Part shown: positions 5,557-49,461 of the stretch, piece after piece
Layout: each line of letters opens with the position of its first letter
Position numbering within the stretch: position 1 is the first letter of the stretch
Source of the DNA: Dehalococcoidia bacterium
GTDB lineage: Bacteria; Chloroflexota; Dehalococcoidia; Bin125
Assembly (NCBI GenBank): GCA_963663895.2
Contig: CAXXRD010000002.1
Span: 349,889-413,888 of the forward strand
Direction: 5' to 3'
Length of the DNA stretch: 64,000 nt
Program-made: the position numbers and the translations under genes
The notes under the pieces: generated by a model
What the model was told of the DNA's origin: nothing
Databases searched by the model: none
Seen by the model: only the letters and a program-made list of their open reading frames with translations

Positions 5557-5562
5557 GGAGCT

Positions 5563-7274: not shown

Positions 7275-7416
7275 ACCACCGGAATCCACGTGGCCGCCGT
7301 GTTTGCAACCGCGACCAAGGGTGGGATCAGCAGCGGACGACCACCACAGCCGGGACGAAGACATCGCGTGGCCGTCACACACGCCGAAGCGCGACCCGAT
7401 CCGCGTGCCGAGAGCG

Positions 7417-8655: not shown

Positions 8656-8902
8656 CGCGGCCCTGCCGGCGGATGCCTCCGCCGGATGCCGCAGTCTAGC
8701 TCTCCGGCTCCCGCAGCGCCGCCCGCGTCCCTCGGCACGGCGGCGATCCCCTGCCGCGCCGAGAGCTTGCGTCTCCTCGCTGGTCCGGTCCTCGCGGTAC
8801 CTGCGATCCTCCGGCCGGCCTCGTCCGCTTCCCCGGAGAGGACTAGGCTGCTCTCGGATCGACCCGCCGGTTCCCCAACGCCTGCAACCCTTGGAGATCC
8901 CC

Positions 8903-9427: not shown

Positions 9428-9642
9428 GGGCCGTTGTCCCCGGCGACATGCTCTGGGTCGTGGCGCCGCGGGCCTAGAGGGTCGGAGGCTAGCGACCGCG
9501 CCCCAGGAACGCATGCACTTCGCTCACTGGAAAAGCATCGTCCTTCAGGACCTCCCGAGCGAGCGGGGTTGCCCTTCGGCAGGGCCGCCCGCAGTCCAAC
9601 GCGACACCGATGGACAGCCGCCACGCTGTAGGCGCGGCTCTT

Positions 9643-9697
9643 GCTTGCCCGGGCCGATGCTCCAGCGTAGAGATATCGGGGAGACGGGGCGGGAGCA
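9643..9697. repeat. repeat copy C (partial, core only)
   Basis: cttgcccgggccgatgctccagcgtagagatatcggggagacggggcgggagcag matches the right-hand roughly 50 nt of copies A and B. It lies about 120 nt upstream of the FeS/NrfD gene. Confidence 0.65.
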
Positions 9698-9818
9698 GCG
9701 CGCCGATCCGGTGCGGAGGCAAGAGACGCCGCCCTCGCCGGGGATGGCTGCTACGCTTTTGGTCGCCGACTGAAACCCTCCGGCCGAGGCACTCGGCCGG
9801 AGTTGCGAGGAATACGGA

Positions 9819-11348: not shown

Positions 11349-11372
11349 GCGATCCGATCGGAGAGCAAGACG

Positions 11373-27865: not shown

Positions 27866-28672
27866 TTACTCGCCGGTGAACTGCGGAGCGCGCTTCTCGA
27901 AGAAGGCGGACGCTCCCTCAAGATTGTCCCGGGTCATGGCCGTCTGCACGAGCGCTTCGGTTTCGAAATCGAGGGCGGTCTCCAGCGATGCCTCCAGGCC
28001 GCGATCGAGCATCGTTTTGTGCAGCTGCACTGCCAGCGGGGCGCGGCTGGCGATCCGCGCCGCCAGACGCCCCGCCTCTTCCCGCTCCGTGCCGGGCTCC
28101 ACCACCCGGTTGACGAGGCCGATGCGGTGCGCCTCCTCGGCATCGATGAACTCTCCCGTGTAGGCCAGCTCGCGGGCCTTGGCCAGTCCGATCTGGCGCG
28201 GCAAGAAATAGGTACCGCCGTTGGTGATCGTCACGCCGATGTTGACCTCGGGGAATCCGAACCGAGCATCGCGCCCCGCCACCACCAGATCGCAGGCCGC
28301 CACGGTCTCGCAGCCGGCGCCGAGCGCATAGCCCTGCACGGCCGCGATCACGGGACAATGCAGCCGCCGGATCCAACGGGCGCTGTCCTGCAAGGCCTGC
28401 TGCCAGCGGCGCAGCTGCGCTCCGCTCAGAGTGCCCGACGCGATCCCTTCGTTATGACTGCGGATCTCCTCCACATCATGTCCGGCGAGAAATGCCCGGC
28501 CTTCCCCTGCCAGCACCACGCAGCGCACGTCGCGATCGGCATCCACCTCGGCCAAGAGCTCGCACATGCGGCTCCAGCTCTCCACGGTCATCGCGTTAAG
28601 GCGCTCGGGACGGTTGAAGATCAGCCAGGCCAAGTGTCCTTCCCGGCGGATGAGGATGCGCTCTTCATTCAT
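27866..28672 (-). CDS. enoyl-CoA hydratase/isomerase (crotonase) family protein
   Basis: MNEERILIRREGHLAWLIFNRPERLNAMT...GEGRAFLAGHD. Start trimmed to the ATG at 28672. Confidence 0.85.
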   Translation of the reverse strand: MNEERILIRREGHLAWLIFNRPERLNAMTVESWSRMCELLAEVDADRDVRCVVLAGEGRAFLAGHDVEEIRSHNEGIASGTLSGAQLRRWQQALQDSARWIRRLHCPVIAAVQGYALGAGCETVAACDLVVAGRDARFGFPEVNIGVTITNGGTYFLPRQIGLAKARELAYTGEFIDAEEAHRIGLVNRVVEPGTEREEAGRLAARIASRAPLAVQLHKTMLDRGLEASLETALDFETEALVQTAMTRDNLEGASAFFEKRAPQFTGE

Positions 28673-28783
28673 GCGGATGCTCCCTCTCTCTCCATCTCGG
28701 CGGTGAGCACGGTGCAGGCTTGCGCTCTCACTGGGCGGCGGAAAGCCTGCTCGCGCTTGAATCTCTCCCAAGAGGTACGAAGT

Positions 28784-34718: not shown

Positions 34719-36506
34719 ATGAGTGAAGCCCTCCAGTCCCCGATGAAAGTCGATCCCGTCACCTTTGAATTGGTGCGTAATTCGCTGAAGGCAGCCTGCG
34801 CGGAGATGGCGCTGGTCGTCTCCAAAACCGCGTATTCGGTGGCGATCAACGAGGGCAAGGACTTCGCCGGCACGATCAGCGACGCCAAAGGCAGTCTGGT
34901 GACCCAGAGCGACTACGACCTGCCGGCGTTCGTGGGGCTGAGCATGTACTCGACCAAGGAGGTCGTGAAGCAGATCGGCCTCGAGAACATGGAGCCAGAC
35001 GATATCTACTGGATCAACGATCCGTATGTCGCCAGCACGCACTGCAACGACATGCACTTCGTACGGCCGGTGTTCTATGAAGGCCGGGTGGCGGCCTTCG
35101 TGGAATCGACCGCCCACTGGAGCGACGTGGGGGGAGCGGTGCCGGGTTCGCTGAATTCCCGTGCGGTGACCCACTACGACGAGGGAGTGCGACTGCCGGC
35201 GGTGCGCGTCTACCGCAAAGGCGAGCTGCAGCGGGACGTGGTCTCGCTGGTGATGACCAACGTGCGCGATTCCTGGGAGCGGATGGGCGATCTGAACGCG
35301 CAGTGCTCGGCGCTGCGCACGGGGGACTCCCGCTTGCAGGAGATGTTCCGCAAGCATGGGCTACAGACGGTGTGGGACTGCATGGATGAGCTGCAGGACT
35401 ACTCGGAGCGGATGATCCGCTCCGCGCTCCGCTCCATTCCCGACGGCACCTACCAGACCGAGGACTACAACGACCAAGTCTTCGAGAGCGGCAATCCGGC
35501 CGCGTTCCGGGTCACGCTCACGATCGAAGGGGACCACGCCACTTTCGACCTGTCCGACAGCGACGAAACGGTGCCGGGCAGCATTAACACGACAATCGTC
35601 TCGACCACCTCGTCCCTGTTCAACTCGTTGGGGGCGATCCTGCCGCCGATGCCGATGAACGCGGGGGTGATGCGGGCAATCGAAATCAAGACGCGGCGGG
35701 GGTCGATCTGCCACGCGCTGCCGCCGACCGCGGTGTCGCTGCAGGCGTCGAGCATGGAGATCCTGGTGGGCTGCGGCGTGCAGGTCTTGAGTCAGGCGCT
35801 ACCGGAACGGGGCGCGGGCACCTGCTCCACCATCCTTAATACCGTCTTCACCGGGATCGACGAGCGCGAGACGTTCGGAGACGAGCCGTTCCTGGAGTAC
35901 GTCTGGGCGGTCGGAGGCATGGGGGGGACGAAATACAAGGATGGGCCGAGCGTCGTGGGGACCGCGTTCACGGCCACGATCCAGAACATCCCGGCCGAGT
36001 TGCAGGAGCGCCGCTACCCGCTGTTCTGGCGGCGCTATCAGATCAAGCCGAACACCGGCGGGCCGGGCAAGCGGCGGGGCGGATTGGGGCTGGACCAGCT
36101 CTGCGAGTTCCCCTTCGTCGGGGGGCAGTTGACGAATTTCGGCAATCGTGCCGAGATGGGGCCGCCGGGATGCTTTGGCGGAGAGCGGGGGGCAACGGCA
36201 GGCCTGGTGATGAACGAGAGAACAGAGAACGAGCGCCGGGTGGGATTGGTGGCGGTGAACGTGCCGGTCAGTGTCGGCGAGACGCTGCACTACTGGTCGG
36301 CAGGGGGAGGCGGGTATGGCGATCCGCTCGATCGCTCGATCGAGGATGTGGTTGAAGATGTGCAGGACGACTTGCTCAGCATCGCCAATGCGCGAGAGCA
36401 GTACGGGGTAGTCATGAGCGAGCGCGATCGGCGGACACTGGACTACGCGGTGGACGTGGCCGCTACCGACGCTTTGCGCAAAGAGAGGCGCGCCAAGCGC
36501 GCTTAG
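34719..36506 (+). CDS. hydantoinase B/oxoprolinase family protein (HyuB-like), with no adjacent HyuA
   Basis: VDPVTFELVRNSL...INDPYVASTHCNDMHFVRPVF. 595 aa. Confidence 0.9.
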   Translation: MSEALQSPMKVDPVTFELVRNSLKAACAEMALVVSKTAYSVAINEGKDFAGTISDAKGSLVTQSDYDLPAFVGLSMYSTKEVVKQIGLENMEPDDIYWINDPYVASTHCNDMHFVRPVFYEGRVAAFVESTAHWSDVGGAVPGSLNSRAVTHYDEGVRLPAVRVYRKGELQRDVVSLVMTNVRDSWERMGDLNAQCSALRTGDSRLQEMFRKHGLQTVWDCMDELQDYSERMIRSALRSIPDGTYQTEDYNDQVFESGNPAAFRVTLTIEGDHATFDLSDSDETVPGSINTTIVSTTSSLFNSLGAILPPMPMNAGVMRAIEIKTRRGSICHALPPTAVSLQASSMEILVGCGVQVLSQALPERGAGTCSTILNTVFTGIDERETFGDEPFLEYVWAVGGMGGTKYKDGPSVVGTAFTATIQNIPAELQERRYPLFWRRYQIKPNTGGPGKRRGGLGLDQLCEFPFVGGQLTNFGNRAEMGPPGCFGGERGATAGLVMNERTENERRVGLVAVNVPVSVGETLHYWSAGGGGYGDPLDRSIEDVVEDVQDDLLSIANAREQYGVVMSERDRRTLDYAVDVAATDALRKERRAKRA

Positions 36507-36633
36507 CGCTTAGGAACGTCACGAGCGTAGTTTCACTACTCATCGGACTATCAAGTCTGAAGTGGAATTCCACGATCTCCTCGTGCAACCGAGCGGTGCC
36601 CTTGGGGCGGTTGACCGCGACAAGAGCACCCAA

Positions 36634-37455
36634 TCACACAGGAGTGGCTTGCCGCCACATCGACTCGATGTCGCCTTCTATCTGGCGGAATTCATCCGTC
36701 GGGAGCATCCGTAAGCAAGTTAAGCTCGATCCGAAATCCTTGAGAGAAGCATCGACGTGGTACACCGCACCATCGACGAAGAGGAGGCGGAGGTGAGGGA
36801 GTTCGCTCCCGATGCGGCACTCGCTATCCCCGTCCCAGCTCGCTCGCCAATCAGCCCAAGCTTCGGTTACCCCTTGACTTACCCTTGGGTGGTCCGAGCT
36901 GAGGAAGCGCCGCGAGACTCCACTGGGCGCGGCCGCCGCGAGCGTGAAGGTGTCATCGTTCGTGTATTGGTCAATGATAACGAGCGAGTCTTGGGCAGGT
37001 CCGATTAGTTGACGCAGCCTGATGGCACCCTCGAATCGCCGTCCGGCACTGACGTAGGTCGGCCCCGGGCGAAGTTCCTCGGGCGAGAACAGTGCCTCTG
37101 GAGTCTCCGCGCTGTCCTCGCGGGTTCCGCCCAACTCGCAAGCGAGCAGCTTCAGTTCGCGGCAGCCGACAGCGGCTCGTACCAATTCCACGCGAATCTG
37201 ATCGAGGGGTTCCGTTCCGCTCACAGCGGGCCACAGCACCACCTCGACCTGTCGAGGAGCTTCATGTCGGAGTTGTGCGTCGATCTGAGCGAGGAGCGTA
37301 GTCCATCGACGATGCCAGGACGCGATTGCCTCAGCATCTCCTTCGCTGATTAGACGCAGCCCATCGCGACGAAGGTCGGCAAGGCGAGCCACCTGGCCAT
37401 GCAAGCGTTCAATCGGATGTGATGCATCGTCGAGTCGGGCACATTCACTGGCCAC
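36634..37455 (-). CDS. hypothetical partner protein (273 aa) with a degenerate HKD/PLD-like string near the C-terminus
   Basis: The GTG start overlaps the upstream gene's stop by 11 nt (GTGGCCAGTGA). The C-terminus reads PHLRLLFVDGAVYHVDASLKDFG, which resembles HxKx4Dx6GSxN with K replaced by R. Confidence 0.7.
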   Translation of the reverse strand: MASECARLDDASHPIERLHGQVARLADLRRDGLRLISEGDAEAIASWHRRWTTLLAQIDAQLRHEAPRQVEVVLWPAVSGTEPLDQIRVELVRAAVGCRELKLLACELGGTREDSAETPEALFSPEELRPGPTYVSAGRRFEGAIRLRQLIGPAQDSLVIIDQYTNDDTFTLAAAAPSGVSRRFLSSDHPRVSQGVTEAWADWRASWDGDSECRIGSELPHLRLLFVDGAVYHVDASLKDFGSSLTCLRMLPTDEFRQIEGDIESMWRQATPV

Positions 37456-40400
37456 GGTGCCTTAGCCCGAATACTCTCTCGTCACGCTCCCTCGCTGCGG
37501 CGCGGTCGCGTAAGTCGCTGAACACTTGTACGCCCGCGTCGATGATCGCGCCGCGGCGTTGATCGTCCCCGCGGTCGAGTTGTGAGAAGGCATCGACTGT
37601 CTTTTGCCAGTGGTGACTCTCTTCGCCCCACCAGGAACTCTCTGAGAAGCTCGTGGTGCCGACGATCTTCTCCAGATCCCATCCGCGGTCGAGAGCGAGT
37701 AACGCCCGTTCCATCCAATCTTCGCTCGGTCCGCGCCGCAGACATACCCACTGGAGTTCGTCGAGGTCAGCTCGATCCAGCAGCGCCTCCGCTGTGGCCA
37801 AGTCCGCCCCCACGAGTTCCGTGACGACATCTTGGAGAGGGAAGGAGGGAGCGTCGGCGGGAATTGCATCGATCAACTCCCGCCGAACGTGAGGCGGTAA
37901 CCCACCGATTTCCTCTACGAGTGTGTGCGGGAGTGACCAGTGGTCAATAGAGTCACGCTTTAGTCGCGTAAACCAAGCACGAAGCCAGTCGGCGAAGAGT
38001 TCAGGATCACTCTTGAGAATTTCTGAGTACCAGTAGTCGTCCGGTGGGCTGGCGATAATTGCCTCGCGCCAGCGAACTTGTCCTGCTTCGGAGAGGTCGG
38101 ACAACTGCGTCTTCCCCGGCCCATGCGCGATCGCTACGGCTGCGTCGCGTGCAACGATCGGGTCGGAAGCATCCAACAAGCGCTCGACGGTCTCAGTGTC
38201 GACTTGACCTCCGACGACCAACCACTCAATCAAGTTCCGGTGGTCCCTACTTAGCCTCGCAATCCCTTTCGCCCTGAGTTCCTCGCCGACGGGACGCGTG
38301 AGGATCACCTGCAAGGCTACCCACGAGTAGGAATCACCCCCGAGCAACTCGGCCAGCGCAGCCTGCCATCCCTCGGCATCAATCTCGACGGACCGTTGCA
38401 GAAACGGCAGCAGCAGATCAGCGGCCGCGCGACGCCGCACCAGTACATCAGTCCAGGTAAGCGGCTCGGCATTCGACTCAGCGAGGAGTTGCGCTAGACG
38501 CGGCGTGAAGCGCGGGTATGAGATTCCGGCGGCGGTGGCCTCCAAGTCCGACCCGTGTAGAAGCTCGACTTGGTCATCGAGCGATCGCGACTTCGCATCT
38601 TTGGCCAACGCGACGACTGCCGCATCAGCCCTCCGCTCCCAGTCGCTGTGGTCGACCTTGGTACCTGCCCAGTGCTCAGGAAAGAGGGTTTCGAATTCAG
38701 GGGGAATCTCGACTACAAGATCGACCTTCGCACCGTACGAGCGGAGCTTTCTGAGCGCACCTGGGCGGTCGGCGAGAATGCTCGTCAGCCGCTCGATTAC
38801 ACGCCGCGCGACGCCGCGAATCGCGTGAACATCGGCCTCGACTGATGCCCTGCCGAGGCCCAGCGTGCGCGGATAGACCCACGAGTGCATCTCGTCGATC
38901 AGTGGTCCGACGGGCCCGTCCTTCACCCGCGCAACGATTTCAAGGACTCGATCCCAGAGAGGGTCGAGCGCGGTCACTACTGCAGGCGGCAGAGGTGCCT
39001 CTCCGATAGTCAACTTGTTGCCGAGCCCGGGGTCCTGAGTTATTACGCGTATCTGGGGTTGCATCGCATGCGTCAGAGCACGGATCCCGACCCCTATGTC
39101 TCCGTCCGCGCGGAGCCAACGGTCAACGGCCTCGACAGCAGCCTTTCTGACCTCGACTGGGTGGTCGGACGCCGCGATGTGATCACCAATGACTCGGAGC
39201 GGGTGATCCGGAGCGCTGTTCTCGGGACGATCGTCACCGACGGCTGCGTCCAATAGCAAAGGAAGCGTGGCGTTGGGGTCTACTTCCGCGCGGTGCGCTT
39301 CCCGGACGATTTCGTCTCGGAATTGCGGCCAAAGCTTGATGGCGTCCTGGAGTTCATTTGCCCCAAGAAGGGCAAACGCGATGGCTGACTCAGAGTCGCG
39401 GTCATCGACGAGGCTGCGTACAAACTCGCGATCGAACTCGGCGCCGCGGTGAATCGCGCCGAGCAACGGGGCCGCAGCGCTCCGATCGTCGTCCAAGTGC
39501 TGAAGCGAGGCACGCAGGTCGAGAGACCCTGGTTTCGGCAGATAGATATCCCGTACGAGGGCGTATCGAAGATCCACCGGCTGGACGCGCAGGCGGATAA
39601 CACGGCCGGCCTCCGGTGTCTCATCTAGGGTTCCGCCTGACGCAAGCCCTCGAATCAGATCCGCAACCGTGGGCTGATTGAGACCGAGCGCCTGACCGAC
39701 CTGCTCAAGCGTGGCTCCGTACTTTCCGGACAGGGCAAGGAATCCGAGTACATATCGACTTTCAGCACCGATCGACCTTGCATACCAGCCAACGATGTCA
39801 CGAAGGAGCACGTCTCCGGCCGCGACATCTCGCAGATCGCCCGTCAGCGACGCGTGGGCGAGCGTGACTGCGAGTCCCACGCGGCCGTGTGCCTGATTCA
39901 CGAGATGGGCTTGAAGTTCGACCGGGGCCACGATCCCCATTTCCTTAATGACGTCGAGAATCTGATCACGTTCAAGTTCCCCGATCTCGAACTGCGAAGC
40001 ACCCGAGAGCGCTCCAGAAACCTCGTCGACGCTTCCCGGCCAGGTCACGGCCGCGATCTTGAAGCTGGCGCTCATCTGGGACCGCAGTTGCCGGAGCCTG
40101 CTCAGCCGATCTCCCTGCAAATGAGCATCGTCAACCACGATCCTCTGCGGCTGCATGTCGCGGATGGCGTTTTCAAGCTGGCTGACATTCCAGCCATCGT
40201 CGAAGAGTCCCCAGTCATCCTCCATCAACTGCTGAAGCAGGAATGTCTTGCCGATCCCAGGCTTTCCGACGACGACGATATCGCTTTCGATGGCTTTCAG
40301 TTGCTCGAACTCTCGGTCTCTTCCGATGAGGGGAATCTCTGGCATAGGGCGACGGGTGACAGGGAGCCGAGACAGCGCGCGGGCCTCACCGGGAACTCCG

Positions 40401-40828
40401 AGAAGTTCTTGCCGCCATGCCGCGTTCCGGTAGAGCCGCCCGATGAAGTCGGCACGATCATGGACAGCGGCGAGGCGGACGCCGAATTGATCGCGCAGGA
40501 GATGGTCTAGCTTGAGTCGACGGCGTCCACTGATCGGTCTTGTGGTCGCGAACACAATCGCGCGGCGCTCACCCCCGGCATCGACATGACTATTGACGTT
40601 GCGCTCGAGATTGCCGCGCGCGTCTTCTTGGACACTGGCTACAAGGAAGAACGGGGTACCGTCAGACAGCTCTCCGATTCCGTCCATGCCTGCATCGTTC
40701 CCGCCCTCGACTGGACGGAGCGACGGGTAGTCCTCACGCAGTAGATCGACTGCACAGCGCTCGAATGTCGGGCCGTCGAGCGGTCGAGCGGTTGCGTCCC
40801 GAATCGCGAGATACAGGGGATCTGGCAT
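37445..40828 (-). CDS. 1127-aa protein: Mrr/restriction-endonuclease-like N-terminal domain, P-loop STAND/AAA-type NTPase, long alpha-helical C-terminal region
   Basis: The N-terminus (FERCAVDLLREDYPSLRPVEGGNDAGMDGIG...FFLVASVQED...RAIVFATTRPIS) parallels the Mrr_cat layout. Walker A is VVVGKPGIGKTFLLQQL and Walker B is QRIVVDDAHL. The remaining roughly 700 aa are Leu/Ala/Asp/Arg-rich and helical-looking. Confidence 0.85.
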   Translation of the reverse strand: MPDPLYLAIRDATARPLDGPTFERCAVDLLREDYPSLRPVEGGNDAGMDGIGELSDGTPFFLVASVQEDARGNLERNVNSHVDAGGERRAIVFATTRPISGRRRLKLDHLLRDQFGVRLAAVHDRADFIGRLYRNAAWRQELLGVPGEARALSRLPVTRRPMPEIPLIGRDREFEQLKAIESDIVVVGKPGIGKTFLLQQLMEDDWGLFDDGWNVSQLENAIRDMQPQRIVVDDAHLQGDRLSRLRQLRSQMSASFKIAAVTWPGSVDEVSGALSGASQFEIGELERDQILDVIKEMGIVAPVELQAHLVNQAHGRVGLAVTLAHASLTGDLRDVAAGDVLLRDIVGWYARSIGAESRYVLGFLALSGKYGATLEQVGQALGLNQPTVADLIRGLASGGTLDETPEAGRVIRLRVQPVDLRYALVRDIYLPKPGSLDLRASLQHLDDDRSAAAPLLGAIHRGAEFDREFVRSLVDDRDSESAIAFALLGANELQDAIKLWPQFRDEIVREAHRAEVDPNATLPLLLDAAVGDDRPENSAPDHPLRVIGDHIAASDHPVEVRKAAVEAVDRWLRADGDIGVGIRALTHAMQPQIRVITQDPGLGNKLTIGEAPLPPAVVTALDPLWDRVLEIVARVKDGPVGPLIDEMHSWVYPRTLGLGRASVEADVHAIRGVARRVIERLTSILADRPGALRKLRSYGAKVDLVVEIPPEFETLFPEHWAGTKVDHSDWERRADAAVVALAKDAKSRSLDDQVELLHGSDLEATAAGISYPRFTPRLAQLLAESNAEPLTWTDVLVRRRAAADLLLPFLQRSVEIDAEGWQAALAELLGGDSYSWVALQVILTRPVGEELRAKGIARLSRDHRNLIEWLVVGGQVDTETVERLLDASDPIVARDAAVAIAHGPGKTQLSDLSEAGQVRWREAIIASPPDDYWYSEILKSDPELFADWLRAWFTRLKRDSIDHWSLPHTLVEEIGGLPPHVRRELIDAIPADAPSFPLQDVVTELVGADLATAEALLDRADLDELQWVCLRRGPSEDWMERALLALDRGWDLEKIVGTTSFSESSWWGEESHHWQKTVDAFSQLDRGDDQRRGAIIDAGVQVFSDLRDRAAARERDERVFGLRHRGQ

Positions 40829-41029
40829 GTAAACGCTCCGCAGAGTGGCCTACGCTCAGTCTAATATGGCCGTGCCTCCCCCAAGAGGGACGATCGGCAG
40901 TTTCAGGCCGAAAAGGGACCGCGGCCGCTGCCATGCGCGAGATGCCATTCCCGAGAGCCTCCTACTTCATGGCCGGCATACGTAGTGGCTACAGGTCTGG
41001 GGCGACAACCTCCGTAGGTGTAGTGAGCT

Positions 41030-41128
41030 TCACGTTCGAGGTGGGCCGAGGCCGTTCATGCGTTCCGGCCGGTTGAGCATGATGCGGGCGACGCGGTCCG
41101 CTCGCTCGTAGGTGATCGTTTCCGGCAT
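41030..41128 (-). pseudogene. 5' remnant (32 codons) of an enoyl-CoA hydratase/crotonase gene
   Basis: My own translation is MPETITYERADRVARIMLNRPERMNGLGPPRT*, carrying the canonical crotonase N-terminal (..I.LNRPE..NA) pattern. GAGGAGG RBS. The ATG lies 11 nt after the hyuB stop. The reading frame collapses where the lower-G+C insertion begins. Confidence 0.6.
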
Positions 41129-41139
41129 GTCCAGCCTCC

Positions 41140-42927
41140 TCAGCTGCCAGCGCGGGCGGCCTGAAGCTCGGCGCGGAGGGCAGCAGTCGCTCCGGCGTCG
41201 ATCTCATAAGAAAGGCAGCGGCGATCCAGCTCACGCACCACCACGCCGTAGTCGGCGCGCGCACCTTCGATCGAGACGTACTCGTCGATCACATCGTTGA
41301 GTACGCGCTCCGGGTCACGTTCCAAGGGATCGCCGTAGCCGCCGCCGCCCGCGGACCAGAAGGAGAGCAGGTCCCCCACTGCGACGGGCACAAGGACCGA
41401 GAATACCGGCAGGGATTGCTCGCGCTCGGTGTCGGGATTCAGCGCCATGCCCGCCGTTCGCCCCACTCGGCCGTCGAAGACGCCGGGAGGGCCGAAGCGC
41501 TCGCGGTTGCCGAATGTGGAGAGCGTGCCCGCCACGTAGGGGAAGGTGACGAGCTGGTGAACGGCCATGCCCCCGCGCGAGCGGCCTGGTCCGCCCGAGT
41601 TCTGCAAGAGCTGGTAGCGCTGATAGAGGAGGGGGAAGCGTCTCTCCTGGAGCTCGGCGGGGACGTTGACGATCGTGGAGGCGTACGGCGATCCGACGAC
41701 GTTGGCGCCGTCTTTGGCGCGCGAGCCGCCCATGCCGCCGGGCGACCAGATGTAACAGATATAGGTGGTGGCGAAGCCATCGCGCGTGTCCCAGCCGTGG
41801 TAGGTGGTGTTGAGGATCGTCGAGGCAACGCCAGCGCCGCGCGCCGGCAGCGCCGCGCTCATCGCCAGGGTGACGGCGCCGATCACCGCCTCCATGCTGC
41901 TTGCGGCGGTCGCGGAGATCGCGGACGGGGACTGCGCGTGGCAGATGGAGCCGGGCGTCGTGCGGATCGTCATCGCCCGCAGGATGCCGGCGTTCATGGG
42001 CATGGTAGGGAGGATCGATCCGACCGCGATGAAGACAGCGGAGGTCGTGGCGGCGATCGTGGAGTTGACGCCAGAGCCGGCGGCGCCGTCGCTGGCGGTC
42101 AGGTCGACGTCGGCGTGATCGCCGTCGATGGTGAGACGCAGCCGTATGGCGACCGGATCGCCGGTTGCCACGTCTTCGTCGACCCAGTCTTCCGCCTCGT
42201 AGACGCCGTCTGGAAGGGCGCGCAGATTCTCTCGCATCATGCGCTCGGACTGGTTCTGAATCTCCGCCATGCCCGCCAGGACGGCGGCGAGGCCGTGCTT
42301 CTCCGCGAGCTCGCGGATGCGCCGGTCGCCAAGCCGGACCGCAGAGGTCTGCGCGTTGAGATCGCCCATGCGTTCCCAAGACTCACGCATGTTGTGGAGC
42401 AGGAGGGCAACGACGTCGCGGTTGAGCTCCCCCGCGCGCCAGATCGTGATCGCTGGGATGCGCACGCCTTCCTCGTAGTGGGAGCGGGCGCTGACGTTGA
42501 TCGACCCAGGTGCGATGCCGCCTACGTCCGACCAGTGCGCTGTGGAGGACACGAAGGCGATGATCTGATCCTCGTAAAAAACGGGACGGACGAAGTGGAT
42601 GTCATTGCAGTGGGTGCTGGCGACGTAGGGGTCGTTGATCATGTAGATGTCGTCGGGCCGCATATTGGCGACGCCGATGCTGCGCAGCACCTCGGGCACG
42701 GCCACCATGGTGATGCCGACGAAGGCCGGGAGATCCGTCTCCCCCTGCGCCACCAAGAAGCCGTGGCGGTCGTAGATAGCCCCGGCGAAGTCCCGTCCCT
42801 CGGCCACGGCGATGGAGTAGGCGCTCTTCGCCACGAGCAGGGCCATCTCGTTGCAGACGGCGCGCAAGCCCGTGGAGACGAGCTCATAGAGAACGGGGTC
42901 AATGGACGGGGGGAGACGCTCGTTCAT
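41140..42927 (-). CDS. hydantoinase B/oxoprolinase family protein (HyuB-like), with no adjacent HyuA
   Basis: IDPVLYELVSTGL...INDPYVASTHCNDIHFVRPVF. 595 aa, a clear paralog of 34719..36506. Confidence 0.9.
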   Translation of the reverse strand: MNERLPPSIDPVLYELVSTGLRAVCNEMALLVAKSAYSIAVAEGRDFAGAIYDRHGFLVAQGETDLPAFVGITMVAVPEVLRSIGVANMRPDDIYMINDPYVASTHCNDIHFVRPVFYEDQIIAFVSSTAHWSDVGGIAPGSINVSARSHYEEGVRIPAITIWRAGELNRDVVALLLHNMRESWERMGDLNAQTSAVRLGDRRIRELAEKHGLAAVLAGMAEIQNQSERMMRENLRALPDGVYEAEDWVDEDVATGDPVAIRLRLTIDGDHADVDLTASDGAAGSGVNSTIAATTSAVFIAVGSILPTMPMNAGILRAMTIRTTPGSICHAQSPSAISATAASSMEAVIGAVTLAMSAALPARGAGVASTILNTTYHGWDTRDGFATTYICYIWSPGGMGGSRAKDGANVVGSPYASTIVNVPAELQERRFPLLYQRYQLLQNSGGPGRSRGGMAVHQLVTFPYVAGTLSTFGNRERFGPPGVFDGRVGRTAGMALNPDTEREQSLPVFSVLVPVAVGDLLSFWSAGGGGYGDPLERDPERVLNDVIDEYVSIEGARADYGVVVRELDRRCLSYEIDAGATAALRAELQAARAGS

Positions 42928-42980: not shown

Positions 42981-43919
42981 CTATGCGAGCAGAGCGGCGA
43001 CGCGGGCGACGGCGGCAGGCTGGTGCTCGGAGGCCCAGAGGGTCGAAACCGTGAGCGTGACGCCCGCCGCTTGCCACGCCTCGATCTTGTCGCGCATCTG
43101 CGAGCGCGAGCCGAAGATCCCGACATCTTCCGCCATGCGCTCACTGATGGCCGCTTCCACCGCCGTGTGGTCGCCGGCGGCGAGCGCGGCCTGCGCACGC
43201 TGCACTTCCTCCCCATAGCCAGCTTCCGTGAAGAAGGCCGTATAGTTGGGGAGCGGCATGTGGAGCGCGAGAAAGCGCCGGACGAAGGCCAGGCCTTCCT
43301 CGCGCTCCTCGTTGATCCAGATCGGCGCGATGTTGGCGAAGGTGCATTGCGCCCGCTTCGCCTCGGGAATCTCTTGCTGCAGGGCCGCGACGTGGGAGAG
43401 GGGGATGTTGGCACCGAGGGCGCCTTCCGCGATCTCGCCGGCAAGCCGGGTCATCTTGCGCCGCAGGGCCGCAATCCATATCGGGGGAAGGGGCTGGCCG
43501 CGGGCCGCGGCCCGCAGCTGCTGAACGTAGTCGCGGACATGCCCCAAGGGCTTCTCCCAGGTGATCCCGAAGGGCTCCAGGATCGCCGCGTGGCCCGTGC
43601 CGAGGCCGAGCCGGAAGCGGCCACCGCTGACCTCATGGTTGAAGGAGGCAGCGCCCGCCAAGTCGGCGGGATGGCGCATGTAGGTGATGCTGATGCCGCT
43701 GCCGACGGTGATCTCATTGGTGGCCTGGAGAATGGCGGAGCAGAGGCTGAGCGCGTCGTATACCTCCGAGATGGCTCCAACCCAGTCTCCCTTGGGAACC
43801 GCCCAGTCGTAGGGGCAGAGGATGTGATCGAATCCCTGACGATCGAGCTGCTGCGCGAGCTCAATGGCCGCGCGGCGCTCGCCCGGCTGAGCAGCCACCA
43901 TGATGCCCGGTTTCGCCAT
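42981..43919 (-). CDS. LLM-class flavin/F420-dependent oxidoreductase
   Basis: GGRFRLGLGTGH and overall LLM-like sequence. Start trimmed to the ATG at 43919 (MAKPGIMVAA...). Confidence 0.8.
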   Translation of the reverse strand: MAKPGIMVAAQPGERRAAIELAQQLDRQGFDHILCPYDWAVPKGDWVGAISEVYDALSLCSAILQATNEITVGSGISITYMRHPADLAGAASFNHEVSGGRFRLGLGTGHAAILEPFGITWEKPLGHVRDYVQQLRAAARGQPLPPIWIAALRRKMTRLAGEIAEGALGANIPLSHVAALQQEIPEAKRAQCTFANIAPIWINEEREEGLAFVRRFLALHMPLPNYTAFFTEAGYGEEVQRAQAALAAGDHTAVEAAISERMAEDVGIFGSRSQMRDKIEAWQAAGVTLTVSTLWASEHQPAAVARVAALLA

Positions 43920-43980
43920 CGTTGCCCTCCCCACTCTGGCCGCTACGATACTGCGCGACGCAAGCGATGGGAGGAAGGGT

Positions 43981-44838
43981 ATGCCAGCACCAGCGCCGCC
44001 CGGAGCGCGACTCCGAGCGCTCATGGATCGGGGGACGGTCGTCGCGCCGTTCGTATGGGACGGCGGACAGGCCGCGTACGCCGCCGCGGCCGGGCATGCG
44101 GCGGTCTACATGACCGGATTCGGCACGGCGGCGGCGCACGGGGTGCCGGATATCGGGCTGCTGGGGATGGGCGAAATGGTCGCGAACGCCCGGCGGATCG
44201 CAGCGGCGGTCGACGTGCCCGTGATCGCGGACGCGGATACCGGCTACGGCAACGCGGCCAACGTCACGCGGACCGTCGAAAGCTATGAGGCGGCGGGAGT
44301 GGCGGCGCTGCACATTGAGGATCAGGTTTGGCCCAAGCGCTGCGGTTTCATGGCCGGCAAGGAGGTCATCCCGATCGAGGAAGCGGTGCAGAAAGTGCGG
44401 GCCGCGTGTACCGCCCGCCGCGACGGGTCGCTGGTGGTGATCGCCAGGACGGATGCGCTGGCACCGCAGGGCTGGGACGAGGTCGATCGACGGATCCACG
44501 CCTTCGCGGAGGCCGGAGCGGACCTGGTGTTCGTCGACGGGCTCAAGACACGGGATGACATCGAGCGGGTGGCGGCGATGGCGCCGGATCTGCCGCGCCT
44601 GCTGAATAGCGGGCTGTTGCAGGCGGAAGAGGCGGCAGCCTTGGGCTACCGGCTGGTGCTTGCCCTCGACACGATCCATGCCTTATTCGGCGCGATCCGC
44701 GACATCTACGAGGAGCTGGCGCGGCGCGGCCGCCTTGACGCGGCCGGGCGAGAGATGCCGGACGTGGAAGCGATCGCACGCGTCCTCGGGGTCGAGCGCT
44801 ACCGAGCGGCGGAAGCGGCGGCGGAGACGGCGCGCTAG
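43981..44838 (+). CDS. isocitrate lyase/PEP mutase family protein
   Basis: VIADADTGYGNA and LHIEDQVWPKRCG signature strings. Start trimmed to the ATG at 43981, which has GGGAGGAAGG upstream. Confidence 0.85.
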   Translation: MPAPAPPGARLRALMDRGTVVAPFVWDGGQAAYAAAAGHAAVYMTGFGTAAAHGVPDIGLLGMGEMVANARRIAAAVDVPVIADADTGYGNAANVTRTVESYEAAGVAALHIEDQVWPKRCGFMAGKEVIPIEEAVQKVRAACTARRDGSLVVIARTDALAPQGWDEVDRRIHAFAEAGADLVFVDGLKTRDDIERVAAMAPDLPRLLNSGLLQAEEAAALGYRLVLALDTIHALFGAIRDIYEELARRGRLDAAGREMPDVEAIARVLGVERYRAAEAAAETAR

Positions 44839-45473
44839 GAGGCGGCGCCGATCTCCTGCAGGTAGGCGATCACTTCGGCTTCGTCGACGACATCTCCGTA
44901 TTTGGCGTTCATGTCGAAGAGGTTGGCCTCGTGGGGCCGCTCATCGCGATCGCCGACGGCCTCGCGCACGATGACGGGGCGGAAGCCGCTGGAGACGGTA
45001 TCGATGCAGGTGGCGCGGATGCAGCCGCTGGTCGTCAGGCCGGCAATGATCAGCGTATCGATACCAAGTGCGGTGAGGGTGGCCGCCAAGCTGGTGCCGA
45101 AGAAGGCGCTGGGATATTGCTTGGAGATGACGAGCTCGTCGTCGCGCGGATCGAGTCCCTCGGGCCAAGCGCCCAGCGCCGATCCCTCTTCGAAGATTCG
45201 CAGTGTGGGCACTTTCTTGACGAAGATGCCCCCATCGGCGGCGCCTTTCATGTAACGCACATTGGTGAAGGCGATGAAGACGCCGGCCCGCCGTGCGGCC
45301 GCGAGCACGCGCTTGGCGGACTCCAGCGTGTCCTCGACGCCCGCGTAGAGCGGCGAGGCGTTGTCGAAATAGGCCTCCACCATATCGACCACGAGGAGAG
45401 CGGGGCGGTCACCGAAGCCGAGGCGCTGATTGTACCCGGCGCCGGCGTAATCCTGGTCGAGATCTTGTGTCAT
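44835..45473 (-). CDS. isochorismatase-family cysteine hydrolase
   Basis: PALLVVDMVEAYF and GLTTSGCIRATCID (nucleophile Cys). Start trimmed to the ATG at 45473. Confidence 0.85.
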   Translation of the reverse strand: MTQDLDQDYAGAGYNQRLGFGDRPALLVVDMVEAYFDNASPLYAGVEDTLESAKRVLAAARRAGVFIAFTNVRYMKGAADGGIFVKKVPTLRIFEEGSALGAWPEGLDPRDDELVISKQYPSAFFGTSLAATLTALGIDTLIIAGLTTSGCIRATCIDTVSSGFRPVIVREAVGDRDERPHEANLFDMNAKYGDVVDEAEVIAYLQEIGAAS

Positions 45474-45499
45474 GACGCGTCGTCCTCCGTGATTCCAGG

Positions 45500-47392
45500 C
45501 TAGCCGACGCCAGCCGATTGCCTGGAGGAGAGCCAGCGCGGCACCTGCGGCTCCGCCGGCGGATCGAGCATGGTTTCCGCTTTGCAGCGGGCCTTGAGCT
45601 CTTCGATCGATCCTCCGAAGTCGAACAACTGGGGCGCGGGGCGTTCGGCGGTGATCTTCTCCCGGAGATCGGTGGTGGCCGCCTGGTCGACGGTGCCGTC
45701 GTCGTTTATCACGACGCCGTAGCGCTTGGCGCCCTCGACGGAGACGAGTCCGCGGGCAACGTCGGCGGCGACAAGGTCGGCGTCGCGCTGGAGGGGGTCG
45801 CCCCAACCGCCGCCGCCCCAGGTGTTGAAGTAGAGAATATCGCCTTCCTCAACCATGATGCGGTCGCACTTGGAGGGCAGGTACTCCCGGGAGCCGTCGG
45901 TGCGCACGAGCAGCTTGGTGCTGCGGCCTCCGGGAAGACCCCCGTTCACGCCCCAGGGGTAGGTGAGCCAGCGGTCGTCGTGAATGGAGATTTCGCCGGG
46001 CTCGAGGAACCGATAGCCGATGGAGATCCCGTTCCCGCCCCGATGCAGGCCGGGGCCGCCGGAGTCGGTCACCGTCTCGTAGGTGTCGATCCGGAGAGGG
46101 AAGTAGCTTTCCAGGAACTCGTTGGGAACATTGGTGAAGGAGGGCCAGAGCGAGTGGCCATCGGGGCCGTCACCCATGGGGCGGCCGGGGATGCCCCCGA
46201 AGCCGATCTGGTAGAGCTGGTACCACTCGCCATTCCTGTCATAGCCGGAGTACATGAAATGCGGGCTGTCGGAGAAGCCGGCGGCACAGAGCAGGTCGGG
46301 GGCCCCTTGTCCGAAGAGGCCGCTGATGATGTCGAACACGCGGCCGAGGGTATGGGTGCGGCAGGAGAGCGCGCCGGGGCGCCGCGGCTTGAGCAGGGAG
46401 CCTTTGGGAATGCGTACTTCCATGAGGTCATAGAAGCCGTCGTTGAAGAGGATCTGGGGGTCGAAGACCATGATCATGAAGACGCCGCAGAACATCTTGA
46501 ACATGGCCTCGCTGAGATAGAAGTTGATGGAGCCGATCGACTGCGGATCGGTCTCCGCGAAGTCGAAGATGACCTTGTCGCCCTCGCGCCACATGGCGCA
46601 GTGGAGCTTGTAAGGGCCCATGCCCAAGCCGTCGTCGCAGACGTAGTCCTCAAAGGTGCGCTTCTCTTCGGGGATCATGGTGCGGATCAGCTCCCGCATC
46701 GCGCGACGGTTGCGATCCAGCAGCTCCTCCAGCGCGGAGTAGTAGACATCGTCGCCGAAGCGCTCGGCGAGCTCGATCGTGCGCCGCCCGGCCAGGCGGC
46801 AGGCGGCGAGGATGGCGTTGAGGTCGCTGCGGTTCCACTGTGGGAGACGGCAGTTGCGCAGGATCAGATCGAGGATGTCCTCCTGCAGCACGCCGCGCTT
46901 ATAGATCTTGACGGGCGGGATGATGACGCCCTCTTCGAAGATCTGGCGGGCGTCGGTGGGGAGACTTCCGGGCACTTTGCCGCCGACATCCGTGACGTGC
47001 CCGAACATCGCCACCCAGCTGATCATGCGACCGTCTTTGTAGATGGGCATGAGGACCAGCCAGTCGTTGCCGTGGCTGATGGCGGCGTCGCAGCTGTAGG
47101 GATCGGAGGTGAGGAAGACGTCTCCCTCTTCGATCAGGCCGTCATAGGCCTGGAGGAAGCCGTGGATGAAGGAGCCGAACTGGCCGACGACCATCTTGCC
47201 GTCCAGGTTGGCGATCATGGGAAACTCGTCGTGCTGCTCGCGGATGCCCGGAGACATGGCGGTGCGGAAGAGCACGGCATCCATCTCAAAGCGGGCGTTG
47301 CGCAGGGCGTTCTCAATGATATCCAGGGTGACGGGATCCACCGTGACTCCCTGGAAGGGCGTTGTGTTGGTTTGCTGAATGGTGGCCGGCAT
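45500..47392 (-). CDS. hyuB: hydantoinase B/oxoprolinase family protein (HyuB)
   Basis: VDPVTLDIIENALRNARFEMD...; 630 aa, immediately downstream of HyuA. Confidence 0.9.
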   Translation of the reverse strand: MPATIQQTNTTPFQGVTVDPVTLDIIENALRNARFEMDAVLFRTAMSPGIREQHDEFPMIANLDGKMVVGQFGSFIHGFLQAYDGLIEEGDVFLTSDPYSCDAAISHGNDWLVLMPIYKDGRMISWVAMFGHVTDVGGKVPGSLPTDARQIFEEGVIIPPVKIYKRGVLQEDILDLILRNCRLPQWNRSDLNAILAACRLAGRRTIELAERFGDDVYYSALEELLDRNRRAMRELIRTMIPEEKRTFEDYVCDDGLGMGPYKLHCAMWREGDKVIFDFAETDPQSIGSINFYLSEAMFKMFCGVFMIMVFDPQILFNDGFYDLMEVRIPKGSLLKPRRPGALSCRTHTLGRVFDIISGLFGQGAPDLLCAAGFSDSPHFMYSGYDRNGEWYQLYQIGFGGIPGRPMGDGPDGHSLWPSFTNVPNEFLESYFPLRIDTYETVTDSGGPGLHRGGNGISIGYRFLEPGEISIHDDRWLTYPWGVNGGLPGGRSTKLLVRTDGSREYLPSKCDRIMVEEGDILYFNTWGGGGWGDPLQRDADLVAADVARGLVSVEGAKRYGVVINDDGTVDQAATTDLREKITAERPAPQLFDFGGSIEELKARCKAETMLDPPAEPQVPRWLSSRQSAGVG

Positions 47393-47403: not shown

Positions 47404-49461
47404 CTAGCTCGTGTGGGGCCGGATGAGGATGTTGCCCAGCGCGTCTATCTCGCCGGTGTGGCCGGGCAGGATGAGGCTGGTGGCATCCATCTCTGTCACG
47501 ATCGCGGGACCGGAGATGCGATGTCCCGCGCGCAGGGCGGCACGGTCGTAGATGGTGGCTTGACGCTGCTCTTGGTCCACGTAGATCGCTTGGGTACCGA
47601 TGGCGGCGGCGGCCGGATCGGAGCCGCTGGTTCCCAGCGTCTCCGCAGCGAGGGTGGTGGCTTGACCATGCACGACCGCGCGCAGATTCACCACCTCTCG
47701 ATCGGCGTCGAGGGCGAAGGTGAAGAGCTGCGTGTGGATCTGGTCGAACTGGGCGCCAGCGGCTTCGAGGCCGCCACTGGTGAAGCCGTCGAGCGCCACG
47801 TCGACGGTGAGGAGCAGGCCTTGGCCGTGGTAGCGGAGATCGATCTGACAGGTGGTGGTCTGGTCGGATCGGGGAACGCCCTCGGCGTCGAGCGCCGCAG
47901 CAGCGGTTTCCTGCAGCTCCTTGAGGATGCCCCCCACTTCGGCGGAGCTGGTCTCGGGGAAGCGCCGAATGAACGTGCGGGAGGCCTCGTTGCGCAAGCG
48001 GGTCGTGGCGTCGCCATAGGCACAGAGCACGCCCGGCCCGGGCGGAATGATCACCGGCCAGGAATTCATGAGGCGGCCGAGTGCGTTGGCATGCATGGGT
48101 CCAGCGCCGCCGAAGGCGACGAGGGCGAAGTCGCGGGGGTCGTAGCCTTGTTCGACGGATACGAGGCGGAGAGCGCCGAACATATTCTCGTTGACGATAT
48201 CGATGATGCCGGCCGCAGCACGCTCCAGAGAGAGGTCGAGAGCGTCCGCGACGGTCTGGACGGCGGCGGCGGCCTTGGCGCGATCGATGGCAAGCTCCCC
48301 GCCGAGACGGGCAGAGGCAGGGAGGTAACCGAGCACGACGTTGGCGTCGGTGACGGTGGGGCTGGTTCCGCCCTTGTTGTAGGCGGCGGGACCAGGGTCG
48401 GCGCCAGCGCTCTGGGGCCCCACCCGCAGGGCCTTGGTGAGCTCGGGAACGTGGGCGATGGAGCCGCCTCCCGCCCCAACGGTGCGCACGTCCAGGGACG
48501 AGGCGCGCACGGTCACGTCGCCGACGGTAGTCTCGCGGCGGGTACGGGCGCGGCCGTCTTGCACGAGGCAGACATCGGTGGAAGTGCCGCCCATGTCGAA
48601 GGTAAGCAGATTGCGGTAACCGGCCTGCTGGGCGATCCAGATGGCGCCAGCGACCCCACCGGCCGGCCCACTCATGAGCAGGTTGACGGGCGTGGCGCGA
48701 GCGGCTTCGGCGGAGGCAAGCCCCCCGTCGGAGCGGAGCAGGTGGAGGTTGTGGTCGCCCAAGCGGTCGCGAAGATCGCCTTGCAGCGCCGTCACGTAAC
48801 CGGCGACGACGGGACGGACGTACGAGTTGGCGACGGTGGTAATGGTGCGCTCGTACTCCTGCATCTCCGGGATCACTTCGGAGGAGAGGGAAACGGGCAC
48901 GCCGGGCATCTCCTCTTCGGCGATCGCCTGAACGCGACGCTCATGCCGACCGTCGGCGTAAGCATTGACCAGAGAGACGGTAAGCGCCTCGACGCCACGC
49001 GCTTTGAGCTGACGAAGCTTGGCGCGGAGGTCGTCCTCGTCCAAGGGCTCGACGACATCGCCGCGGGCGCTGAGGCGCTCCTTCGCTTCGATCGTCAACT
49101 CGAGCGGAGCCAGCGGCGCACTCTTGTTGTAGATCACCCAGGCGCCGAGACCGCCGGGGACGAAGGAGCGGGCCACTTGCAGCACCTGTCCGTAACCCTG
49201 TGTGGTTACGAGGCCGACGCGGGCGCCACTGCCGGTGAGGATGGCGTTGGTCGCGACGGTGGTGCCGTGCATGACTTGGCCGATTGCCCGTGGCGCGATG
49301 CCGGCTTGCTGGCAAACTTTCTCCAACCCTTGTAGGACGCCAGCGGAGAGGTCCGCGGGAGTGGAGGGAACCTTCGCGATGTGCCGGGCACCGCTGTCTT
49401 CGTCAATGAGAAGAAGGTCCGTGAAGGTTCCACCCACGTCGACACCGACTCGGAAGGCCAT
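47404..49461 (-). CDS. hyuA: hydantoinase A/oxoprolinase family protein (HyuA)
   Basis: MAFRVGVDVGGTFTDLLLID is the typical HyuA/ASKHA N-terminus. 685 aa. Confidence 0.9.
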   Translation of the reverse strand: MAFRVGVDVGGTFTDLLLIDEDSGARHIAKVPSTPADLSAGVLQGLEKVCQQAGIAPRAIGQVMHGTTVATNAILTGSGARVGLVTTQGYGQVLQVARSFVPGGLGAWVIYNKSAPLAPLELTIEAKERLSARGDVVEPLDEDDLRAKLRQLKARGVEALTVSLVNAYADGRHERRVQAIAEEEMPGVPVSLSSEVIPEMQEYERTITTVANSYVRPVVAGYVTALQGDLRDRLGDHNLHLLRSDGGLASAEAARATPVNLLMSGPAGGVAGAIWIAQQAGYRNLLTFDMGGTSTDVCLVQDGRARTRRETTVGDVTVRASSLDVRTVGAGGGSIAHVPELTKALRVGPQSAGADPGPAAYNKGGTSPTVTDANVVLGYLPASARLGGELAIDRAKAAAAVQTVADALDLSLERAAAGIIDIVNENMFGALRLVSVEQGYDPRDFALVAFGGAGPMHANALGRLMNSWPVIIPPGPGVLCAYGDATTRLRNEASRTFIRRFPETSSAEVGGILKELQETAAAALDAEGVPRSDQTTTCQIDLRYHGQGLLLTVDVALDGFTSGGLEAAGAQFDQIHTQLFTFALDADREVVNLRAVVHGQATTLAAETLGTSGSDPAAAAIGTQAIYVDQEQRQATIYDRAALRAGHRISGPAIVTEMDATSLILPGHTGEIDALGNILIRPHTS

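Follow-up and report, generated by a model that had tools for sequence, protein, structure and literature searches.

The STAND gene and the segment that carries it

The window analyzed here, a stretch of 64,000 nt from contig CAXXRD010000002.1 of a Dehalococcoidia bacterium, carries on its reverse strand a gene for a protein of 1127 amino acids (aa) with the build of an antiviral STAND nucleoside triphosphatase (NTPase) of the Avs type. A shorter partner gene overlaps its 3′ end, and both genes lie on a segment of foreign base composition set among metabolic genes. We consider it probable that the 1127-aa protein is a single-chain antiviral STAND pattern-recognition receptor, Avs/NLR-like in kind, carried on a small horizontally acquired island. 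The open reading frame (ORF) is intact, and inspection of the sequence finds a GGAG about 8 nt upstream of its start. The features of the gene, all read from the translation, from profile searches or from a predicted structure, are these.

37445..40828, reverse strand: Avs-like STAND NTPase gene, an intact 1127-aa ORF with an ATG start and its stop codon at 37445-37447
40394..40828, reverse strand: N-terminal Mrr_cat-like domain (PD-(D/E)xK fold), aa 1-145, from hidden Markov model (HMM) matches, hhalign, BFVD and the model
39539..40333, reverse strand: STAND module, aa 166-430, from the secondary structure of the model, Foldseek, sub-threshold Pfam matches and invariant residues; it divides into a P-loop nucleotide-binding domain (NBD, aa 166-300), a helical domain (HD, aa 301-355) and a winged-helix domain (WHD, aa 356-430)
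40244..40267, reverse strand: Walker A motif GKPGIGKT, aa 188-195, from the translation
40121..40144, reverse strand: Walker B motif RIVVDDAH, aa 229-236, from the translation
37448..39538, reverse strand: C-terminal all-alpha solenoid, aa 431-1127, the presumed sensor, from the AlphaFold model

The three-part layout that an initial annotation had read from the letters, with an N-terminal effector-like domain, a central STAND NTPase and a long helical sensor, is borne out by an AlphaFold2 model built from 83 homologs (predicted local distance difference test score, pLDDT, 88.2; predicted TM-score, pTM, 0.73) and by the structures that resemble it. The top Foldseek match in the PDB is EcAvs4 bound to a phage portal (8dgf, E 2.7e-10), followed by CED-4, NLRP proteins, NRC3, Apaf-1, the Avs5 filament and NLRC4, all at probability 1.00 and with E values that run, over these STAND structures, from 2.7e-10 to 1.7e-3. 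The head of the model follows the order alpha-beta-beta-alpha-beta-alpha-beta, and the solenoid of about 700 aa is all-alpha apart from a single beta-hairpin at aa 592-612. The Walker motifs are intact, as first claimed, and the alignment of 83 family sequences shows how tightly they are held: G188, G191, G193, K194 and T195 of Walker A and D233 of Walker B are invariant, and D234 and H236 of Walker B are at least 90% conserved. A GxP-like motif, G315xxGLA, sits in the helical domain. By its Walker motifs, its NBD-HD-WHD succession and its similarity to solved structures, the modeled protein is a STAND NTPase; by its N-terminal effector domain, STAND NTPase and sensor of about 700 aa (at least 400 aa being the criterion), it also has, in the model, the tripartite layout of the Avs proteins.

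The segment that carries the pair and the edge of the host sequence upstream of it were placed as follows.

36507..41045, no strand: horizontally acquired segment with both genes, between two intact hydantoinase-B paralogs
41030..41128, reverse strand: enoyl-CoA hydratase remnant of 32 codons, MPETITYERADRVARIMLNRPERMNGLGPPRT*, with its own GGAGG; it marks the upstream insertion edge at about 41045

The initial annotation had placed the gene in an insertion of lower G+C that destroyed a metabolic gene, and both parts of that statement hold up, the second on the evidence of a short remnant. The segment has a G+C content of 0.614, lower than the 0.655 and 0.667 of its flanks, and G+C at third codon positions (GC3) is 0.67 in the STAND gene and 0.64 in its partner versus 0.81-0.88 in neighboring host genes. 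The remnant begins just past the stop codon of the hydantoinase-B gene upstream, and over 25 aa it is 40% identical (tblastn, E 0.004) to the N-terminus that the ECH_1 gene at 27866-28771 encodes, which supports an insertion that truncated a hydratase gene. The 32-aa peptide, too short for the purpose, gave no Pfam match to ECH_1, and the C-terminal remainder of the hydratase was not seen across the island. Foreign GC3 together with a truncated host gene points to a recent insertion. No flanking repeats, target-site duplication, tRNA or integrase was found at the island borders. Two other accounts of the borders were tried and rejected. A HyuA gene as the one destroyed left no remnant, what remains being the start of an enoyl-CoA hydratase; and a recent inverted duplication of the flanking hydantoinase-B genes, both intact, is ruled out by their identity of 56% and the lack of long shared repeats.

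The surroundings of the island are metabolic. Three hydantoinase-B/oxoprolinase paralogs lie within 13 kb (34719-36506, forward; 41140-42927 and 45500-47392, reverse), of which one alone adjoins a HyuA-like partner (47404-49461, reverse) and the other two stand by themselves; the remaining neighbors include a luciferase-like monooxygenase (42981-44024), a PEP-mutase/ICL-like gene (43900-44838) and an isochorismatase (44835-45806).

This position between hydantoinase-B genes could be taken to mean that the protein is a regulatory or housekeeping STAND of the MalT, AfsR or LuxR type, governing the adjacent hydantoinase and CoA-metabolism genes, and winged-helix matches of the MarR/ArsR type at aa 357-429 (weakly to MarR_2 at aa 359-406, and to an ArsR/MarR-type profile at aa 359-426) could be read in the same sense. 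In the model, however, that signal falls on the standard winged-helix domain of a STAND protein and is not a regulator output, and Pfam finds no LuxR/GerE helix-turn-helix (HTH), SARP or other output HTH anywhere in the 1127 residues, in keeping with the absence of an output domain noted from the sequence at the start. Moreover, no metabolic genes are common to the nine annotated neighborhoods of homologs described below, so that a shared metabolic operon is lacking as well, and the base composition and truncated hydratase speak for a recent arrival. Against this evidence a metabolic regulator is scarcely credible.

The family and its Mrr-like head

A word-indexed search returned 169 relatives, nearly all of 1100-1170 aa, that align over their full length with identities of 37-79%; no relative carries a name more specific than “hypothetical.” When the N-terminal 150 aa alone served as the query of an exhaustive HMM search, cluster representatives numbered 988 at E<=1e-3 and 282 at E<=1e-30; with clusters drawn at 50% identity, we state the size of the family as at least 282 clusters. 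Among the best 150 of these matches to the head, almost all are proteins of about 1.1 kaa or obvious fragments of them, which indicates that the head domain is locked to a single architecture. A genome scan places the family mainly in metagenome-assembled genomes (MAGs) of Dehalococcoidia and other Chloroflexota, including Tepidiformaceae at 75% identity, with sporadic copies in bins labeled Binatia, Hyphomicrobiales, Bryobacterales and Thermoanaerobaculia. No match was obtained in PHROGs, and a BFVD search found no phage-encoded full-length relatives.

Divergence within the family is uneven. The C-terminal part changes fastest, with a mean pairwise identity of 0.39-0.43 versus about 0.56 in the other domains, as is expected of a ligand sensor. 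Some genomes hold two diverged paralogs (L005 and L023 on OZ253575.1; L010 and L021 in CAXXYI01; P0065 and P0074 on a 4.17-Mb contig), an arrangement reminiscent of the expansion of NLR repertoires. In six loci (L016, L022, L023, L028, L029 and L032) the gene is broken into shorter ORFs of 483-803 aa, or leaves none; the split copies lie at about 10001-13400 in each of these MAG loci. Such splits could reflect pseudogenization or frameshift and assembly errors in long-read data. Multiple paralogs and frequent fragmentation are typical of defense genes, although some of the fragmentation may be an artifact of assembly.

The order of elements that had suggested an Mrr_cat domain in the first 130 or so residues is present as quoted, and the family as a whole supports the assignment better than the window protein does by itself. 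Pfam Mrr_cat (PF04471) matches 13 of 19 family N-domains, over as much as profile positions 4-107 of 115, and 2 of 10 N-domains scanned individually exceed its gathering score of 21 bits, at 27.1 and 21.3 bits; the window head reaches 13.7 bits, in a match confined to the first third of the profile. The PADLOC model Aga_REase, an Argonaute-associated restriction endonuclease, matches aa 21-130 weakly (E 9e-4), and BFVD models named “Restriction endonuclease” align to the head over about 131 columns. An hhalign comparison of the N-domain profile with a hand-composed Mrr-like consensus gave E 1.2e-4 and paired FE with FE, LL with LL, DAGMDG with DGGIDI and the VVFATT strand with ILVTTS; with a consensus of that origin, the result is supportive only. 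The same profile against the AF1548 fragment (1y88) yielded nothing in hhalign. Taken together, the head is homologous to Mrr_cat and belongs to the restriction-endonuclease fold.

Its active site is another matter. The window head reads A-S-V-Q-E-D where Mrr has its (E/Q)xK, on strand 3, as the initial annotation had seen in calling the catalytic lysine missing, and the loss turns out to be a property of the family, whose consensus is LVAT(T/V)x(K/E/Q/R)D and whose lysine-equivalent position varies among the 101 aligned members (K in 34, E in 30, Q in 16, R in 10). Nuclease activity of the head is thus uncertain. Invariant or nearly so in the same members are E23, D45, G47, D49, G50, D56, D69, N73, G86, R89 and T95, among which D49 is strictly invariant, E23 is the glutamate of helix alpha1, and D45 and D49 are the aspartates of the DxGxDG strand. 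Conservation of polar residues this strong argues for a working polar site, though not the textbook one. Judged from the alignment, the effector site appears to be non-canonical, with E23 and the DxGxDG aspartates kept and the (E/Q)xK replaced.

The same alignment bears on whether the gene in the window is in decay and no longer functional. Position 65 of the head is threonine in 100 of the 101 members, and the window protein, with serine (codon 40634-40636), is the sole exception; the homologs split in the six loci named above show that family genes do break. In the window, however, both ORFs are full-length and intact, every invariant motif residue is kept, serine for threonine is a conservative change, and part of the apparent fragmentation elsewhere may be long-read assembly error. 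We regard decay of the window copy as very improbable.

Neighborhoods of homologs and the partner gene

The initial annotation had proposed the neighborhoods of homologs as a check on a defense role. Within 10 kb, all nine of the neighborhoods with gene annotation hold defense genes or mobile elements, as follows (R-M, restriction-modification; IS, insertion sequence).

L001: AAA_21/AAA_15 with HNH (Septu-like), and a DDE transposase
L003: DruA with a DUF87 giant ATPase (Druantia-like)
L004: Dcm methylase with DUF4928 and Vsr; SPP1-type portal and SU10 adaptor remnants
L056: type I R-M (HsdR/S/M), SIR2_2 and HicB
L057: ResIII with an N6_N4 methylase (type III-like R-M); TerB_N/TerB_C with a BrxC/D-like ATPase and a DEAD helicase; UvrD
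L058: type I R-M, HepT/MNT and TIR_2; CBASS CD-NTase with Cap15 directly upstream
L059: IS21/IS110, UvrD, type III-like R-M and HepT/MNT
L060: inside a conjugative element (ICE), beside a 1192-aa SIR2 protein
L061: SPP1-type portal and SU10 adaptor remnants; SocA_Panacea

A further 120 neighbor ORFs, at most about 4 kb away from the gene, were called at 21 additional loci, with greedy longest-ORF calling at the low-GC islands, where GC3-based calling failed; the aggregate Pfam and PADLOC scans of these ORFs give counts of families and not assignments to single loci. In Pfam, N6_N4_Mtase, UvrD-helicase, DEAD, ResIII and Replic_Relax recur three times each, and IstB, phage integrase, IS110 transposase and HTH_3 twice each, beside ordinary transport and metabolic genes. 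PADLOC counts three each of type III methylases, GajB-like helicases, a DRT-type reverse transcriptase-helicase and mad2.

Some of these settings raise the question of whether the gene serves the maintenance of a mobile genetic element (MGE) or exclusion, through addiction or conflict between MGEs, instead of dedicated anti-phage immunity. Homologs lie inside an ICE, in prophage remnants and beside IS elements, and Replic_Relax, integrase and IstB recur among their neighbors. Defense genes, however, are often carried on such elements, the direct neighbors are mostly bona fide anti-phage systems, no MGE partner gene is conserved across the loci, and no MGE genes surround the window copy. A role confined to mobile elements is accordingly improbable.

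Several neighbors deserve mention in their own right. On the Dehalococcoidia chromosome of L058, a CBASS CD-NTase and Cap15 transmembrane effector (8147-9613) lie 390 nt upstream of a STAND-plus-partner pair and are co-oriented with it, and the CBASS pair is flanked by type I R-M with embedded TIR and HepT/MNT genes. A clade at about 41% identity has, after the STAND gene and in the same orientation, a gene for a 219-aa Trans_reg_C protein of the OmpR winged-helix type (11446-12105 in L004; 13445-14104 in L061; a possible third at 12374-13033 in L023). Its setting is a prophage-like remnant with portal, adaptor and LysM genes, and it may be a different accessory or merely prophage cargo. Two genes for proteins without a Pfam match, one of 1669 aa (4834-9843, reverse strand, in L059) and one of 779 aa (4187-6526, forward strand, in L001), adjoin the family gene in islands rich in defense genes and IS elements and are possibly further uncharacterized defense genes.

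In the window itself the immediate neighbor is the partner gene, which is translationally coupled to the STAND gene and encodes a protein with a phospholipase D (PLD) fold.

36634..37455, reverse strand: partner gene, 273 aa, with a GTG start and an 11-nt overlap with the end of the STAND gene
37132..37416, reverse strand: three-helix bundle of the partner, aa 14-108, from the model
36637..37071, reverse strand: PLD-fold domain of the partner, aa 129-273, from the model, Foldseek and PDC-S05 matches

The public call for this gene (P0121), at 202 aa, lacks about 70 residues of the 273-aa GTG ORF. Among the 33 partner homologs found, which are 40-70% identical, the N-terminal 70 or so residues are conserved, with L25, G32, W47, W51 and P67 invariant, and the 273-aa form is therefore probably the correct one. 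In its model (pLDDT 86.5) a disordered linker joins a helix bundle at aa 14-108 to an alpha/beta domain at aa 133-269. Foldseek matches at probability 1.00 are the C-domains of TrmBL2 and TrmB, MITD1, NucT, the DUF1669 domain of FAM83, Zucchini and PLD1/PLD3; the match to MITD1 (2ymb) spans 262 columns and thus includes the helical part. The putative active site is an HKD variant, H221-x-R223-x4-D228-x6-D235-A-S237-x-K239, in which R223 and D228 never vary and conservation of H221, S237 and K239 is 90% or higher; relative to the HxK(x)4D(x)6GSxN of PLD enzymes, it has R for K and K for N. Pfam PLDc_2 finds the partner homologs weakly (E 0.076, in 3 of 25), whereas two PADLOC HMMs for PDC-S05, with lengths of 285 and 306 positions, match the C-terminal half at E 1.3e-11 and 1.5e-10, the match covering positions 156-277 of the 285.

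Across the family the partner is patchy. It stands directly downstream of the STAND gene, overlapping it or a few nt away, in L001/L005, L006, L009, L010, L012, L017, L020, L021 and L062; fragments of it are all that is left in L007, L008 and L011, where the STAND gene is intact; and it is absent from L013, L029 and every locus at <=50% STAND identity, being confined to the clade at >=53% identity. This distribution is that of a clade-specific, dispensable accessory.

It is against this background that a two-component pair has to be weighed, one in which the head is dead and acts as an adaptor or oligomerization platform while the effector proper, a nuclease or phosphodiesterase, is the PLD-fold partner, which would be brought in by way of its helix bundle and presumably forms a homodimer as Nuc, NucT and Zucchini do. 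The loss of (E/Q)xK from all 101 heads invites such a division of labor. So do the near-complete HKD-like set in the partner, its confidently modeled PLD fold, which matches NucT and Zucchini among others, the overlap and common orientation of the genes, conserved at 40% to 100% partner identity, the report that a related PDC-S05 protein protects alone, and the requirement of KpAvs2 for an accessory that binds near its nuclease domain. A partner that is missing or fragmented in most of the family, however, cannot be its universal effector, although the arrangement could apply to the clade of the window. The polar residues of the head (E23, D45, D49, D56, T65, D69, N73 and R89) are strongly conserved, which speaks for a working site, and the top structural neighbors of the partner, TrmBL2, TrmB, MITD1 and FAM83, are non-catalytic PLD folds. 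On balance we think a division of this kind unlikely.

A related and bolder proposal is that the Mrr-like head, once a canonical PD-(D/E)xK nuclease, was converted throughout the family, either into a re-wired site (E23/D49/D69/N73/R89) of different chemistry or substrate or into a pure assembly platform, and that the receptor of the partner clade works as a sensor-plus-helper pair, with a PLD-fold HxR enzyme related to PDC-S05 recruited as an effector acting in trans. This we consider doubtful. If it were true, Avs proteins would gain an effector logic so far undescribed among them.

Interpretation and relation to known systems

The favored reading, a single-chain Avs/NLR-like receptor, draws on the domain architecture, the folds, the conservation of motifs, the size of the family, the genomic context and the foreign composition established above. 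For ligand binding, oligomerization, effector chemistry and the role of the partner, it borrows from Avs3, Avs4 and KpAvs2 (PMC11564622; PMC13581612). By that analogy, a phage protein would be bound by the fast-evolving C-terminal alpha-solenoid; binding would relieve the autoinhibition of the NBD-HD-WHD switch, so that nucleotide is exchanged, NTP is bound and an oligomer forms; the oligomer would cluster the N-terminal Mrr-like domains; and the clustered heads would act as a cell-killing or DNA-degrading effector, with abortive infection as the outcome. The partner, as a clade-specific accessory akin to the Avap proteins of KpAvs2, may modulate the receptor or add a second, phosphodiesterase activity. 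The KpAvs2 precedent supports the reading on two counts, since it has both clade-restricted accessories and an Avs effector of the Mrr type (PMC11564622).

Several results weigh on the other side. No Pfam, NCBIfam or PADLOC model scores above threshold on the 1127-aa query: the Pfam P-loop matches at about aa 166-235, to AAA_22, AAA_16, nSTAND3 and NACHT, are all below the gathering score (AAA_16 at 23.6 bits with a cut-off of 32.6, nSTAND3 at 18.5 with 27.2, NACHT at 16.2 with 26.7), no NB-ARC match reaches threshold, the NCBIfam scan is empty, and no AVAST/Avs model in PADLOC v2 hits the query at E<=1. Thus the HMM searches that the initial annotation had called for succeeded for the head, through Mrr_cat in the family, and fell short for the NTPase, as they did for the solenoid, which has no Pfam match to TPR, HEAT or ARM. 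Sequence and profile searches of the PDB, with full-length and N-domain alignments, returned generic P-loops, an ArsR winged helix or noise and did not retrieve 8dgf. The global TM-score to Avs4 is low, at 0.22, in a range of 0.14-0.22 across the STAND matches, and the likeness to Avs4 is therefore one of domains and their order, with no rigid superposition; low global scores are expected for a multi-domain switch protein. To these must be added the missing (E/Q)xK in 101 of 101 aligned members, a link to defense that was judged from nine annotated loci and raw aggregate counts, and the position of the window locus among metabolic genes and not in a large defense island.

In Avs/NLR-like receptors bacteria have their counterpart of the innate immune sensors of eukaryotes, and each new family of them may recognize a different conserved phage protein. 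The present one is large, unannotated and concentrated in Chloroflexota, Dehalococcoidia above all; to our knowledge, phage defense in that phylum is almost unstudied experimentally. The head with its replaced (E/Q)xK and the sub-clade with a PLD-fold partner offer concrete starting points for learning how STAND effectors become diverse and how accessories connect to them.

The initial annotation had put the two genes forward together as an undescribed defense module. What stands of this is the defense or mobile-element context in nine of nine annotated loci and the failure of PADLOC to call a named AVAST system on the STAND protein; what has to be qualified is the novelty of the pair, since the PLD-fold half of the partner matches PDC-S05 and the partner is an accessory of one sub-clade. 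Nor need the STAND family itself be new to surveys. Lee et al. (Nature 2026, PMC13581612) list 589 STAND clades from NCBI nr, 198 of them defense-associated, with at least 90 prevalent sensor types and 684 sensor clusters; a member of our family, MCY4528783.1, is in nr, and so the family may already be among those clades without a name.

The best structural match in the PDB is EcAvs4 (8dgf). Both proteins have a head of the Mrr-type restriction-endonuclease fold, a STAND NTPase and a long alpha-helical sensor, and both are single-gene systems found in defense islands. They differ in that no sequence homology between them is detectable (PADLOC AVAST models; PDB sequence and profile searches), in that the window protein is about 400 aa shorter and its head lacks (E/Q)xK, and in the PLD-fold partner of one sub-clade. 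In KpAvs2, too, a head of the Mrr family precedes a STAND NTPase and a long sensor, and its accessories, which bind or assist the receptor, Avap1 and Avap2, also occur in a minority of homologs, about 5%; Avap2 binds near the nuclease domain, and the Avs2 head is reported to be an active nuclease (PMC11564622). There the accessories are radical-SAM and DUF6375 proteins, whereas in the window family they combine a three-helix bundle with a PLD fold, and no sequence similarity to Avs2 was detected.

For the partner, the point of comparison is PDC-S05, one representative of which is reported to have lowered the plating of phages T7, T5 and T4 on E. coli (preprint 10.1101/2024.09.26.614923). The PLD-fold half of the partner matches two PDC-S05 HMMs, but the match is limited to the C-terminal 120 or so positions of these profiles; PDC-S05 is defined as a single-gene candidate, whereas the partner is operonic with a STAND receptor; and the representative that was tested is described with a RhuM-type domain, which is not seen in the partner.

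Two broader classes frame the protein. With Mrr_cat (PF04471) the head has in common the FE...LL helix, the DxGxDG and ATT strands and the general succession of alpha and beta elements; it departs from that family in the replacement of (E/Q)xK throughout and in the additional conserved residues D56, D69, N73 and R89. With the NLRs and AP-ATPases (Apaf-1, CED-4, NRC3, NLRC4, bNACHT) the protein shares NBD-HD-WHD, Walker A, a DD-type Walker B and a GxP-like motif, whereas the effector and sensor domains are others and the NACHT and NB-ARC models of Pfam stay below threshold. The window family is, in sum, an uncharacterized addition to the well-populated Avs/NLR class that brings no new principle to it, and two features of it are unusual, the re-wired head and the PLD-fold accessory related to PDC-S05.

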